From an uncultured Fibrobacterales bacterium (GTDB taxonomy: Bacteria > Fibrobacterota > Fibrobacteria > Fibrobacterales > CAWVXU01): a stretch of 10,661 bases of DNA. A program made the position numbers. This document shows, piece after piece, positions 6,001-10,661 of the stretch (the stretch's first letter is position 1; each line of letters begins with the position of its first letter). The stretch is taken from NCBI GenBank assembly GCA_963934255.1, contig CAWVXU010000088.1, positions 1-10,661 on the forward strand, given 5' to 3'.

Positions 6001-9000
6001 ATGGCGTATACTTAAGATAAGTCTCGCTTTAGTTCCCAGAAGCATACTTTCTGTGATAGCCGCTTTTTTTCGAATCACATTTTTTTGATCTATTAATTTT
6101 CCAGGCCAAGGTATGCTTTGTTGAATTCCAAACTTCTGCTCTTGTGGGCCTACTTTTGTTTGTACGCTCTCACCAAACCAAGAATAAGTCATCATCGGAT
6201 CGGGTAATTCACCGACTTGGTTGACCTCTTGTAGTTGCATTTCTTTTTGTAAAACAACCTGCTTGATTTTAGGACTCTCTTGTAAAGCGAGTTGACTCAC
6301 TCTACTCAGATCTAATGTTTCTCCGGCCATCACAGAATAGCCAATTGTAACATAAACTAATAGCAGTAAATAATTCATTTTAATCTCATTCATTGTAAAA
6401 AACAGACATGCCTTTTGTATTAGTTATACAAGAAGGGTGTGGTCCTAGAAATGAATGAAGTTTAAATTAAAAGCATTTGTTTGAACTGAAAATCAGTTGC
6501 CGTCCATTGAGTCAGATTTCTCTGGCTATTAATTTGGCTTTTGGAGTTTTCTCGAATAAGAGAATTAGAAATACTAAGAGCAAGTAGAGCACCATTAAAT
6601 GAATTGAATGATTTTAGTGTTTGATAAGGAGCTTTGTATGTTGTTTTTAGTTGAGTATAGTATTGAGGTTGTATTTGGATCAGTTCAGCCGAAGTTAAAG
6701 TACTTTGCCAAGCATCATTACATTCACAAAGTCCGATTGTTTCCGCGGTCTCCCTGGTCTCTATGTTCTCTGAAGTGATTTCCTCAGGAGCAATCTGATT
6801 TGGGCAACAACTATGCTCTACTCCCATCTCATCACGGCTCGTCAATTCACCCATCCACATAGATAGGCACGTATTTGGCATGCTTAAGCTAAATACTTGT
6901 ACGACCATTAAAACGGCCAAAATCTTGTGAATTGATGTGATCATATGATTAGTTTAAAACTTTTAGGATAAAAATGCAATCAACTACTATGAGTTTTTAC
7001 AAAATGATGACACATAAAGGGCTTTAGCTCTAAAATTACCAGTCATTGGCAAGTTAACCGCTAGTTCACCTCTTGATTTACATGGTTTTGGTTTAAACTA
7101 TCATGAGCCGATTTGATGACTTGAGCTAGCCTCAACCACGAGTCTTCTTGAATCGCCCACCCGGCTATAAGGAAAAAAGGGCGAGGCTCTAGAGTGTCAG
7201 GATCTTCTCTTAGTATGTAAAGTTTGCCATTTTGGATAATTAACTGAGAAAAGTCTTGATATCTATAACGCTTGGAGCCTGGACCAAAGAGGGCAAAGAT
7301 ATGGATATCTTGCTCTGTAATCGTTAATATGACTTTTTTGGACATTTTCAACGCAGTTAAAAGAAGAACTAAAGGCAAAAACCATACAAAGGGATCCAAC
7401 ATAATGACTGATAATTGCGATTCACTATCAAGGCCAGCTATTAATTTCCAAAGAAAAAATAGTATGGCAAATAATCCAATTATTACAGGGCGCTTAGAGG
7501 TGTACTTAAATAGCCAAGGAAATTGAATAACTATCTTTACCCCATTTACCACTTCTTTTTCTTTTTGATTCATAGGCTCTTTTTAGCTATTTCATTTCTT
7601 TATTAGTTGTGTTTGCAATCAATTCAATCAGTTCGATTTTTGTATTAACTTGAGTTGCTCTTTAATTAAATTTATCACAATGTCACGCTCATTATCGTCA
7701 CTCGCATCGCCAAAGTCATAGCTCCGTCTCACCCATTCTCCTTGAGTCGTCATCACTCCCCCCCAAGCGATTCCCGACCAAGCCACTTGACTTGCTTCTT
7801 GAACATCACGGTGTCGAGTATAGACAGGGGTCCACAAGATTTCATTTCCATGGGTTATGATAAAAGTCACGCCCTTTCCGCCGAAATTGACTTCGTCAAT
7901 TCTACGCAGAGTATAATCTATTATAGAATGGTTTTGTTCCATCTCATCTCCTAGGCTCAAATTACCGCGATCATTTATTCACATTTATGGTTTTTTAGTC
8001 CGGATTGGGTAAATCATCTAATTTTTTAATCATACGCAAGAGGAGAATCGGTATCAAGAGTGCCGCAGCTCCGGCTATATATGGCATAGTAGCGTTAGCA
8101 CGCCAGTAAAGCACACACGCCACAAGTGGCCCAATAGTCCGCCCCAAAGCGCCCAAACTTCTAAATGTTCCTAATACACGCCCTTGCTCGCTTGCTGGGC
8201 TGTACTTAGATACCATTGCTGTAATACAGGGGATGACTTGAGCAGATCCAATCGCCATAAAGAAAGTTGAGAGATACAGCATCCAAGTATGATGACTAAA
8301 GCCCACACCAATAAGCGCCGGCATTAAGATCCAAAGCCCTTGGATAGCCATTTTATTTTCACCAACAATTGAGGCTTTGCGACGTACATAACCACCTTGT
8401 GTGAAAGCTAATGTCATCCCAATAAATAAGAATAGCAATCCGTTTTGAGCAGGGGTATAATTCAGCCTCTCAACAGCGAGGAATGTTAATGTGAACTCAG
8501 TCCCACTAAATGCAGCCAAAAAGAAAAAATTTGTCAAATTGACTTCTGAAACGCCAGGGTACTTCTCTTTTTTGAATAATTTAAAGACATTAAAAGTTCT
8601 TAGGCTTTTAGATAAATTTCTTCGACTTTTAGGCAGTGTCTCAGGCAAATTATGGTAAACAAAATGAAGTGCTACCATACTACTCACAAAGGAAATTAAA
8701 GCAGGCACACTAAACGGGTTGATTCCATACTCTTGCCATGAAGGGAAATAATCCAATAAATTAATCTGTGCACTGAGACCACCGATCACCGGACCAAATA
8801 TAAAGCCGAGCCCAAATGAAATCCCTACAATTGCCATGCCCTTAGACCTAGACTTTTTATCAGTAATATCAGCCACGACTGCAGTTGCCGTGGATATATT
8901 GGACCCCATCAAGCCACCTAATAAACGAGCGAAGAAGAGTGTTGTAAATGTCCCAGCAAACCCCCACCAAAGATAGGATAGTGCCAATCCAAAAACAGAG

Positions 9001-10661
9001 ACAAATAACACCGGCTTACGGCCAATTTTATCAGATAGAGTTCCCATGATAGGAGCCACGATAAATTGTATACCAGAATAAATGAAGCTTAAGAACCCAC
9101 CAAACAATACCGCAAGTGCAATCCTTGCTGAAGTCTCAGTGTCACCCGTAGCACCAGCCCAAGCTGCCAAAGAATTTAAGTGACCTACGATATAATTAAG
9201 TAGAGTTGATTCAGGAGCAGAGTAGAGGTAATAATCTAGAAGCGATGGGAAAAGCGGGAATATCATCGAGAAACTAACAAGATCCAGGAACAAAATCATA
9301 AATACGACTTTGAGGATCTTCTTGGCTTCAGGAGTCAGTGATGCGGGTTTTTCACCTAGTGGTGGAAATTCAAAAACCTCTGCCTCAGTCGGAACATGTC
9401 GCTCAATCGAAACTTGAGGATCGGCAATTTCACTGGCAAATCTTTTCACCCATCTCGGGTCGTCATTGAGACAAGGAATCGTAGCAAAATTTTCACCTCC
9501 ATTCTCAATAAAGGTCTCACGAAGTTCTATGTCGATTTCTTCATTTGTCTCAAGATTATCAACAGTAAAAGCTGGACAGATCACCGCAAGGTTTTTAATT
9601 CCTTTTTGAGCAAGTTCAATTGTTTTGTTTTCCGTTGAAGGCTTCAGCCATTCTTCACGACCAAATTGAGATTGAAAAGCACAAATATATTCAGGGATTG
9701 TAAAGTCAGAGTCAGACTCACTGCGGCGCTTTAATTCTTTACCAAGAAGTTGGAAAGTTTCACGACAATGGTAATAGTAGGGGTCACCATCATAGATTCT
9801 TTGTTTGGGAAGGCCATGGAAGGAAACGAGAAGGACTTCAGCGGCTTTATTTTGAACAGCTTGCTCTTTGAGAGTCTCGACCGTTCTGTCTGCCAGTGAG
9901 TCAATAAAGGCCTTCGTATTATGAAACCACTCAATCCAATCAAATTCAATCTTGGCCATATCATAGCCTTGACTTTCTAACTGCGGGATGACTTTCTCAT
10001 ACATCACATCGTGAATAGACAGTGTCGTTGAAGCAGAGTACTGAGGATACTGAGGTATGACGCGAATTGTCGTACAACCCTGATCTAGGAGGCTTTGGAC
10101 TCCTTCAGGGATAAAAGGCGCTTGCCCCAAAACAAAACAATGTCTTACAGGGTAATCAGGTAATTCACGTGCAACGGCTTGACTAAAATCTTCTGTCTGA
10201 AATATCAAGGGAAAGCCACGCTCCGTATGTATAGATGCATAGGCCGCAGCACTCTTAGGTGAGCGAGTCGGCAGGATGATTGCATTCAGCAAAATTTTCC
10301 AGCCTAAACCTTGATTGGTAATGAGTCGACGATCGCTTAAAAAATCGCGCAAATAAGCTTTGACATCCGGAACACTGGGACTTTTAGGTGAACCAAGCTG
10401 GACTAGTAAAATTCCTGTTTTCAATGTCATGAAGACCTCATTTATTCAATCGTACCTAAAATAGTAATTCCACTCCAATTGGTGAAGTGAAAGACCACTA
10501 GTATCTATTGAATATTAAAAGCAAATACTCACCGAAATTGAGTTGATATTTCTGTATATTTCATCTAAAACAGAGCAGGCAGAATCATGAACAATAGAAA
10601 TCAACACAATGGCAACAATCCTCAGCGCAAAACATCTGTACTTGCCAGGCCAGAACCTTGG

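Follow-up and report, generated by a model that had tools for sequence, protein, structure and literature searches.

The only ferrochelatase detected in the genome of an uncultured Fibrobacterales bacterium is fused to a complete major facilitator superfamily (MFS) transporter of the MFSD10 family. We consider it somewhat better than even (a probability of roughly 55%) that the enzyme feeds haem or protoporphyrin to this transporter, which would export it by proton coupling, the substrate and direction being those that we infer. The gene occupies one intact frame, free of internal stop codons, in the window, the whole 10,661-nucleotide stretch of DNA analysed here (Table 1). Its 811-residue product matches PF00762 (Ferrochelatase; residues 4–333, E = 4.4e-85, model positions 1–311 of 317), scores above the TIGR00109 hemH cut-off (228 bits versus 124.6) and matches MFS_1 (PF07690) in two stretches, the better of which spans residues 376–685. 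The fusion described in the initial annotation is therefore real, and its claim of a sole ferrochelatase agrees with the single PF00762 match in this 92%-complete genome. An assembly artefact is ruled out by full-length fusions in 96 genomes of one class (Bacteriovoracia). The GC3 of the gene (0.36 versus 0.32 ± 0.04) gives no sign of recent arrival. Promoter and terminator scans at the locus returned chance-level results, and the window ends 231 bp upstream of the gene.

Table 1 Features of the fusion gene in the window
Feature	Position	Strand	Basis or remark
Whole fusion gene	7995..10430	-	811 aa, HemH-linker-MFS order
Ferrochelatase domain, residues 4-333, predicted protoporphyrin (PpfC) type	9432..10421	-	PF00762, TIGR00109; closest PDB entry is human ferrochelatase
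Hydrophobic active-site lip, residues 35-60	10251..10328	-	Aligned to human lip segment
His205, SFHG motif, predicted catalytic	9816..9818	-	Aligned to human active-site His
Glu294, LET motif, predicted catalytic	9549..9551	-	Aligned to human active-site Glu
Linker, residues 337-366	9333..9422	-	Ordered in model, block pLDDT 88-98; no cysteines there
MFSD10-family MFS transporter, residues 367-805	8016..9332	-	12 membrane helices and an extra helix 409-424 (model)
Asp383, helix 1, candidate proton or substrate site	9282..9284	-	Conservation
Presumed MFS motif A, G463-x-x-S-D467-x-x-G-R471	9018..9044	-	Invariant
Presumed antiporter motif C, G542-x3-G546-P547-x2-G550	8781..8807	-	Invariant
Glu645, helix 7	8496..8498	-	Aligned to helix-7 glutamate of NorA

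The ferrochelatase half is, judged from its sequence, an enzyme of the protoporphyrin rather than the coproporphyrin route, with predicted Fe(II) insertion. Human ferrochelatase is its best PDB match (E = 1.8e-22); the coproporphyrin enzymes match at 4e-8. Homologues were taken as the best 120 of 797 matches at E ≤ 0.001 among 8,000 scored candidates, the window protein included. His205 and Glu294, which we take from the human enzyme to be the catalytic histidine and glutamate, are invariant in all 120, as are W44, L48 and R56 of the lip, a hydrophobic element that binds the membrane in PpfC enzymes. The host genome encodes HemC, HemE, HemF and HemJ and, at 92% completeness, has no match to ChdC, from which we conclude that the host makes protoporphyrin. 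The window protein thus shares with HemH/PpfC ferrochelatases the full domain, both predicted catalytic residues, the lip and the HemF/HemJ route of its host, but differs from them in bearing an entire 12-helix transporter. Partners in known ferrochelatase fusions include ChdC and a CAB helix. To our knowledge, no ferrochelatase fused to a transporter has been reported, and no description of a ferrochelatase–MFS fusion was found in the literature searched.

The transporter half is closest to human MFSD10 (TETRAN; TC 2.A.1.2.73, DHA1), as already annotated, both in sequence (PDB entry 6s4m, E = 1.7e-62, followed by NorA at 4.5e-14) and in fold (Foldseek TM-score of 0.91 and r.m.s.d. of 2.0 with 6s4m, the best solved match), although MFSD10 itself is unfused. 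By the motif definitions that we assume, the features of DHA1 drug:H+ antiporters are all present, namely 12 helices, motifs A, B and C, and membrane carboxylates. We take residues 463–471 to be MFS motif A, and residues 542–550 to be motif C with the antiport meaning that this name presumably carries. Bacterial and eukaryotic members alike conserve D383, R502, E645, R683, R757, R764 and motif C, with Asp383 kept in 97–100% of the fused, unfused and eukaryotic groups and Glu645 in 100% of all family groups. An alignment of these groups contains no conserved histidine able to ligate haem in the transporter. In NCBIfam, Tet(A)-type pumps come closest, none of them reaching its cut-off, and identity as a Tet(A)/(B)/(C) tetracycline pump is rejected (NF012174, 155 bits versus a cut-off of 475). 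PucC and LhaA (PF03209) are likewise MFS proteins, encoded beside late tetrapyrrole genes in photosynthesis gene clusters; the window protein differs in having no PF03209 match, and the matches on some other family members are weak (25–30 bits).

The AlphaFold2 model of the fusion has a pLDDT of 93.5 and a pTM of 0.86, and that of a second fusion, 46% alike, reaches a pTM of 0.83. Two Atlas models of fusions superpose with a TM-score of 0.79 over 778 residues, the pTM of an Atlas model being only 0.64. These models of separate fusions fit a predicted fixed pose of the two domains. Mutual information over 192 fusions (approximately 99 effective) gave no real inter-domain covariation; the top inter-domain pairs are taken as noise because some are impossible, lying across the membrane. 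Complex prediction with the halves as separate chains scored 0.00 against a mark of 0.32 with controls not folded, a result that counts neither way.

All of the best 120 homologues are 782–881 residues long and carry both PF00762 and PF07690, the named ones being called only 'ferrochelatase', as the initial annotation had reported. The fusion is present in 96 of 121 Bacteriovoracia genomes, with no second HemH listed in any of the 96, and is sporadic elsewhere (Lentisphaera, Planctomycetota and the host genome), in line with the earlier statement that it is not specific to this host. Among 201 genomes of the Halobacteriovorax phylum, the transporter family occurs in 36, all within the Bacteriovoracia class sample, and in none of the remaining 165. 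Sequences labelled 'Bdellovibrio' and 'Oligoflexia' therefore probably do not come from those lineages; of the carriers named initially, Lentisphaera, Planctomycetota and Halobacteriovorax stand. A further 150 genomes from the host's phylum lack the transporter family, which occurs in 1 of 251 Acidobacteriota genomes; most HemH-bearing genomes are without it. An invention specific to the host lineage is rejected, since none of the 150 phylum-mates carries the fusion and both halves group with the Lentisphaera-side fusions.

In phylogenetic trees, the transporter family is separated from 11 outgroup rows with a starred support of 100, and TetA-like paralogues stand apart. The eukaryotic MFSD10 proteins (rows named MFSD10-like) group together within the bacterial family, and the 99-supported subclade to which they belong also contains all sampled fusions. 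The eukaryotic rows nest with the fused ones at a starred support of 98–99, though not in the FastTree tree, and a sister position is not rejected by an AU test of the nesting (p = 0.109). A single event followed by several splits may lie behind the fusions. In one genome (G151), a HemH from another clade has taken the place of the original one while the transporter remains at its site, and anchoring is thus unlikely to be the reason for its retention. This, together with the invariant transporter residues, weakens the earlier caveat that the fusion may only anchor HemH, and a pure anchor role for the transporter is unlikely.

New evidence on a tetrapyrrole link comes from the gene contexts of the unfused relatives. 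Of 113 unfused loci, many with short fetched flanks, 13 directly adjoin haem or chelatase genes, in three kinds of context. At L122, the unfused member lies head-to-head with hemC-hemF-hemE-hemY-hemH, with 49 bp between them. In 10 of 29 unfused Planctomycetota loci and at L169, cox3 directly precedes the unfused member in ctaA-ctaB-(ctaG)-cox3 operons, which carry the haem A and haem O synthases and have cox2-cox1 ahead where the flank reaches; in the tree, those sampled group in a starred clade of their own, separate from the fusions. The oxidase context is not exclusive to the MFSD10-like family, since at L191 ctaB is likewise followed by a TetA-like paralogue that is more distant. At L251, the unfused member is directly upstream of the sole BchH/CobN-like class I chelatase of its genome (G600). 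One further locus (L168) has ctaA/ctaB four or five genes off and is treated as probably chance. Haem and chelatase genes are absent from the fetched flanks of the other 99 loci, which include all 11 loci of the GTDB scan and large coaD/pgsA and glyA/rsmB groups (80 loci were kept from at least 599 rows of GTDB family-member neighbourhoods). The tetrapyrrole link first proposed from the fusion gains from L122, the 11 ctaA-ctaB loci and L251; the 99 count against it. Together with the fusion, the contexts suggest that the MFSD10 family may move haem or its porphyrin precursor across membranes.

Raw co-occurrence of the transporter with an unlinked HemH is 51/54 versus 27/67 in Hydrogenedentota and 28/32 versus 112/219 in Planctomycetota. 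Incompleteness does not explain the former, because 118 of the 121 Hydrogenedentota genomes carry tgt. With a tgt tree covering 100 of these 121, an underpowered test of independent pairs gave no significant tree-corrected co-occurrence (of 7 supported pairs, an average of 1.3 were concordant, 0 discordant and 5.7 uninformative). Eleven genomes have the transporter but no PF00762 match, including both carriers of one small phylum.

The transporter can also be read as a broad efflux pump for organic anions or drugs that has no special tie to haem; one old fusion would have been tolerated, perhaps parking HemH at the membrane, and passed on by descent and by transfer as a unit. The 99 loci, the non-significant corrected co-occurrence, the possible single origin of the fusions and the Tet(A)-type NCBIfam neighbours all accord with this, as does a link of MFSD10 to NSAID resistance in the available part of one report (PMC8154325). 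We nevertheless regard it as unlikely, because it leaves the hemCFEYH, ctaAB and chelatase contexts unexplained, HemH retains its own hydrophobic lip and G151 keeps its transporter after the HemH swap.

Metal insertion is common to every special context, and the transporter could instead import metal, Fe(II) for the fused chelatase and copper for the oxidases of the cta operons, on the models of mitoferrin–ferrochelatase and CcoA. The CcoA/CalT copper importers carry an MxxxM motif in their helix 7 and an HxxxM motif in helix 8; these motifs and any conserved histidine there are absent (helix 7 consensus AFSGMEFTLTF), and that identity is rejected. Although bfr/bfd lie near 16 fused loci, feoAB near 3, and two membrane carboxylates are conserved, several conserved arginines and the antiporter motif suit an anion, the separate contexts would require different metals, and the host already has FeoB, which makes metal import quite improbable.

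The main fusion carriers are predators, which would suit import of outside porphyrin or haem, for instance from prey, and its transfer to the chelatase for salvage. The chelatase at L251 and HmuS, a haem de-chelatase, share a superfamily, on the available part of the source (PMC12583661). The de novo pathway is, however, present in the host and at L122, and motif C and the kinship with NorA and TetA indicate export; we think such import very improbable. The least probable reading that we consider is a queuosine-precursor transporter fused to HemH by happenstance. It could draw on queF in 66 loci (still beside the unfused L060, L072 and L261–L263), tgt near 9 loci, queA near 1 and an MFS preQ0/preQ1 transporter described in the available part of one paper (PMC11130926). 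The queF gene is, however, divergent and confined to one class, which indicates synteny; the tgt gene, three genes away in one ruvB-spoIID-tgt-yajC block, is encoded on the other strand; and in Hydrogenedentota tgt is nearly universal, yet the transporter tracks HemH.

The export reading draws on what is known of the family: a cytoplasmic N-terminus, antiport motifs and anionic MFSD10 substrates. In the proposed mechanism, a protoporphyrin ferrochelatase would be seated on the cytoplasmic face of a transporter of the drug:H+-antiporter type. The enzyme would draw protoporphyrin IX from the inner leaflet and insert Fe(II), a tetrapyrrole would be handed over from the enzyme domain to the transporter domain, and the transporter would send it outward against protons, in the direction and with the substrate presumed here. 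The cargo may be newly made haem b destined for oxidases under assembly; alternatively, the transporter may serve as a safety valve for an excess of haem or protoporphyrin. The Gram-positive exporters PefAB (Streptococcus agalactiae) and the C. difficile MFS exporter, likened here by description, share the MFS type and serve as our working model, but are unfused and regulated by haem-sensing repressors. PefAB is called a drug:H+ antiporter of a haem-efflux system in the available part of a 2024 review (PMC11442138), according to which CydDC and CcsBA bring new haem across the inner membrane so that oxidases or cytochromes can be assembled. These two differ in their ABC or WWD-channel folds with histidine ligands, and the host has its own CcsA-type system II synthase (C10, 636 aa), which bears out the system II cytochrome c maturation noted initially. 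The fusion is unlikely to exist for delivery to cytochrome c, since CcsBA itself moves the haem that it uses over the membrane (PMC11442138, available part).

More broadly, and with the odds against it, the MFSD10 family could be an ancient and so far overlooked haem or protoporphyrin exporter: fused to ferrochelatase in Bacteriovoracia and some other Gram-negatives, where it would take the product directly, serving haem A/O oxidase assembly in some Planctomycetota, and still moving tetrapyrroles in eukaryotic MFSD10, human TETRAN included, as a descendant of the fused transporter half. The crystal structure of human MFSD10 has been solved; in the accessible parts of the sources, its natural substrate is not settled and its reported substrates are organic anions and NSAIDs, with tetrapyrroles not among them. 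In the text available from the 2024 review, the bacterial haem exporters named are limited to ABC systems and a single MFS protein of which little is understood, and the existence of haem efflux pumps in Gram-negatives is left open (PMC11442138). The fusion offers one concrete and cheap hypothesis for both Gram-negative haem efflux and the substrate of MFSD10, testable in human cells and in Halobacteriovorax marinus and Lentisphaera profundi, cultured species among the matches listed. Should the transport reading prove wrong, there would still be a class-wide protein architecture hidden beneath the label 'ferrochelatase'.

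The ferrochelatase-MFS fusion is real and class-wide, joins two known families and is apparently undescribed so far; a literature search, with most subscription papers and the domain-architecture databases outside its scope, found no account of such a fusion or of MFSD10 tied to haem. The initial annotation had described an 811-residue protein with a complete HemH domain followed by an MFS transporter, and this is borne out by the stop-free frame, by a full ferrochelatase in residues 4-333 (PF00762 E-value of 4.4e-85; TIGR00109 score of 228 bits versus a cut-off of 124.6) and by the match of the remainder to MFS_1 in Pfam. 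It is also, as proposed, the sole ferrochelatase, being the only PF00762 match in the 92%-complete host genome. The transporter half is indeed most like human MFSD10 among PDB entries (6s4m, E-value of 1.7e-62, versus 4.5e-14 for the runner-up, NorA), and all 120 homologues listed, the window's own included, carry both domains in 782-881 residues, as reported.

Features of the window and of compared loci
Feature	Location	Strand	Basis or remark
Operon for a CusA/CzcA-type RND pump, an outer-membrane factor and an adaptor that carries a heavy-metal-binding domain	301-6393	-	Pfam/NCBIfam; downstream of fusion
ORF	6462-6944	-	no Pfam or NCBIfam match
ORF	7061-7573	-	no Pfam or NCBIfam match
ORF	7628-7939	-	no Pfam or NCBIfam match
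Fusion gene, 811 aa, stop-free single frame	7995-10430	-	ORF reading
Possible start of divergent gene, truncated by contig end	10588-10661	+	ORF reading
Fusion with one in-frame stop just ahead of transporter	L064:4780-7332
Lone BchH/CobN-like chelatase (G600, Planctomycetota)	L251:3112-6858		adjoins transporter
TetA-like MFS gene, a distant paralogue, immediately behind the haem O synthase gene (ctaB); a cox2-like gene follows	L191:518-2721
UbiX-like flavoprotein after fusion	L140:7314-7889
UbiX-like flavoprotein after fusion	L237:5423-6013

An AlphaFold2 model of the fusion (pLDDT of 93.5, pTM of 0.86) shows 12 membrane-spanning helices, one additional helix (residues 409-424) and an ordered linker, and its closest fold is 6s4m (TM-score of 0.91 and r.m.s.d. 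of 2.0). The H. marinus fusion, 46% identical to the window protein, has a pTM of 0.83. The high pTM across both domains suggests that they are held in a fixed pose; two Atlas models superpose with a TM-score of 0.79 over 778 residues, although that of the window protein has a pTM of only 0.64. The N-termini of MFS proteins are cytoplasmic, and the fused ferrochelatase should therefore lie on the inner membrane face. Fused, unfused (without attached HemH) and eukaryotic transporters conserve motif A, Arg502, antiporter motif C, Asp383 and Glu645, and Tyr401, Trp489, Arg683 and Arg757 distinguish the MFSD10 family from TetA-like paralogues. No conserved histidine was found in the alignment of the three groups; that the transporter imports metal is distinctly unlikely. 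Background for comparison is given by mitoferrin, the motifs of CcoA, PucC and known ferrochelatase fusions with other partners.

In the ferrochelatase half, His205 (SFHG) and Glu294 (LET), invariant in 120 sequences, align with human active-site residues, and we take them to be catalytic as in human ferrochelatase; the hydrophobic lip (residues 35-60) is retained. Because the host has HemC, HemE, HemF and HemJ and its genome gave no match to ChdC, the substrate should be protoporphyrin IX. After the ferrochelatase domain, the linker of 15 of the 120 fusions (P0011, P0016, P0020-P0022 and ten others, including that of Lentisphaera profundi) carries a cluster, C-x-CC-x5-CxxCPY, a candidate Fe-S or Zn site that is absent from the window protein linker.

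The fusion was said to extend beyond the host genome, and 96 of 121 genomes in the class of Halobacteriovorax carry it; in the others it is broken by a contig end (4), or there is transporter alone (8), a partial match (1), HemH only (6) or no match (6). Across 201 genomes of that phylum, the transporter family occurs in 36, all within this class. It is present in 32 of 251 Planctomycetota genomes (fused in 3 of those), 54 of 121 Hydrogenedentota (none fused) and 1 of 251 Acidobacteriota. The fusion is absent from all 150 other genomes sampled from the phylum to which the host belongs, and in trees both halves of the host protein group with Lentisphaera-side fusions; it was therefore probably gained by the host lineage as a unit. 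Some unfused members (L060, L261, L262, L072 and L263) branch within the fused rows, which points to later splits. Genome G151 keeps the transporter at the usual site, and its HemH comes from another clade. A stand-alone HemH from the host's own order (L003, genome G130) groups with fused HemH domains with weak support and is perhaps a former fusion minus its transporter; the in-frame stop in L064 reflects either an error in sequencing or a gene that split recently.

Transporter and HemH co-occur in Hydrogenedentota (both in 51 genomes, transporter only in 3, HemH only in 27, neither in 40; Fisher p = 1.6e-10) and in Planctomycetota (HemH in 28 of 32 carriers versus 112 of 219 others; p = 8.6e-5), counts for which aerobic lifestyle is a possible confounder. 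Genome incompleteness was rejected as the cause, because 118 of the 121 Hydrogenedentota have tgt and carrier-clade genome sizes are alike. On a tgt tree of 100 Hydrogenedentota genomes, losses of transporter and HemH look repeated, but an independent-pairs test gave 7 supported pairs and was not significant. Eleven genomes have the transporter without a PF00762 match (G358, G673, G679, G392, G464, G518, G600, G152, G328, G356 and G620), with HemE in 3 of 5 checked; G356 and G620, from one small phylum, may be true exceptions.

Neighbours were compared at 113 unfused loci, comprising, among the matches listed, 11 of 80 from a GTDB scan and 64 of 80 from a metagenome scan (the remainder being 13 distant paralogues, set aside, and 3 fused loci), 29 of 31 fetched from Planctomycetota and 9 others, with 2 kb on both sides in 66; haem genes beyond the 18-protein panel, supplemented by Pfam on selected neighbours, could be missed. 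Tetrapyrrole genes are directly adjacent in 13 of the 113. At L122, a single locus whose sister L150 is incomplete upstream, the transporter stands head-to-head with hemC-hemF-hemE-hemY-hemH across 49 bp. At ten Planctomycetota loci and L169 it is the next gene after cox3, in the same orientation, in operons of the form ctaA-ctaB-(ctaG)-cox3, preceded by cox2 and cox1 where the flank extends that far; these count as one event, because the sampled members form one starred clade. In that clade, the transporter of L251 lies 127 bp upstream of G600's only BchH/CobN-like chelatase, which, in a genome with HemE and no PF00762 match, might stand in for HemH or remove the metal from haem; it belongs to the superfamily of the haem de-chelatase HmuS (PMC12583661). 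At L168, ctaA-ctaB lie four or five genes away, probably by chance, and the panel and selected Pfam searches revealed no haem genes in the flanks of the remaining 99 loci. The L191 paralogue either widens the association or lowers its specificity.

The RND metal-pump operon of the window was not seen beside other fusions; the ORF preceding it has a CC/CxC motif. A TIGR01777-like epimerase (DUF1731) is directly upstream of the fusion at L038, L041 and L070 and nearby at L238 and L050; two lineages have it upstream, and at one unfused member it stands two genes away. On the opposite strand downstream of fusions are bacterioferritin (16 loci: L042, L044, L045 and 13 more), often with bfd, and feoAB (L038, L041 and L070). 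The presence of queF at 66 loci and of tgt close to 9 could be read as a sign of queuosine-precursor transport, and an MFS transporter of preQ0/preQ1 is known (PMC11130926), but both genes belong to conserved gene order, each within a single lineage. This is the most doubtful of the alternatives.

By gene context, a tetrapyrrole substrate is the leading, if unproven, reading: the porphyrin ring is the sole element common to the fusion and the haem operon, haem A/O operon and chelatase contexts. The fused transporter would export haem or protoporphyrin, and we put the probability of such export at roughly 0.55; a general efflux pump with an incidental fusion to HemH is rather unlikely, and porphyrin import is very improbable. 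The antiporter motifs, with the anionic substrates described for MFSD10 (PMC8154325, PMC5627054), fit export of a dicarboxylic porphyrin. Export would serve oxidase assembly or relieve a toxic surplus, either of which fits better than cytochrome c supply, an unlikely purpose because the host encodes a CcsA-type synthase and CcsBA transports its own haem (PMC11442138).

In trees, the eukaryotic proteins (MFSD10-like, from Hydractinia and Styela, and fungal) cluster as one clade nested among the bacterial members of the family. Two IQ-TREE runs place it with three or four HemH-fused rows (98-99, starred), FastTree beside, not within, the fusion clade, and the sister position is not rejected by the AU test (p = 0.109). 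A UbiX-like flavoprotein follows the fusion at the three loci branching nearest eukaryotic MFSD10 (L140, L237 and L238). Kinship of eukaryotic MFSD10 to this bacterial subfamily is well supported by these phylogenies, whereas its descent from a fused gene is only a possibility, and the fusion offers a direct test for the orphan human transporter MFSD10.
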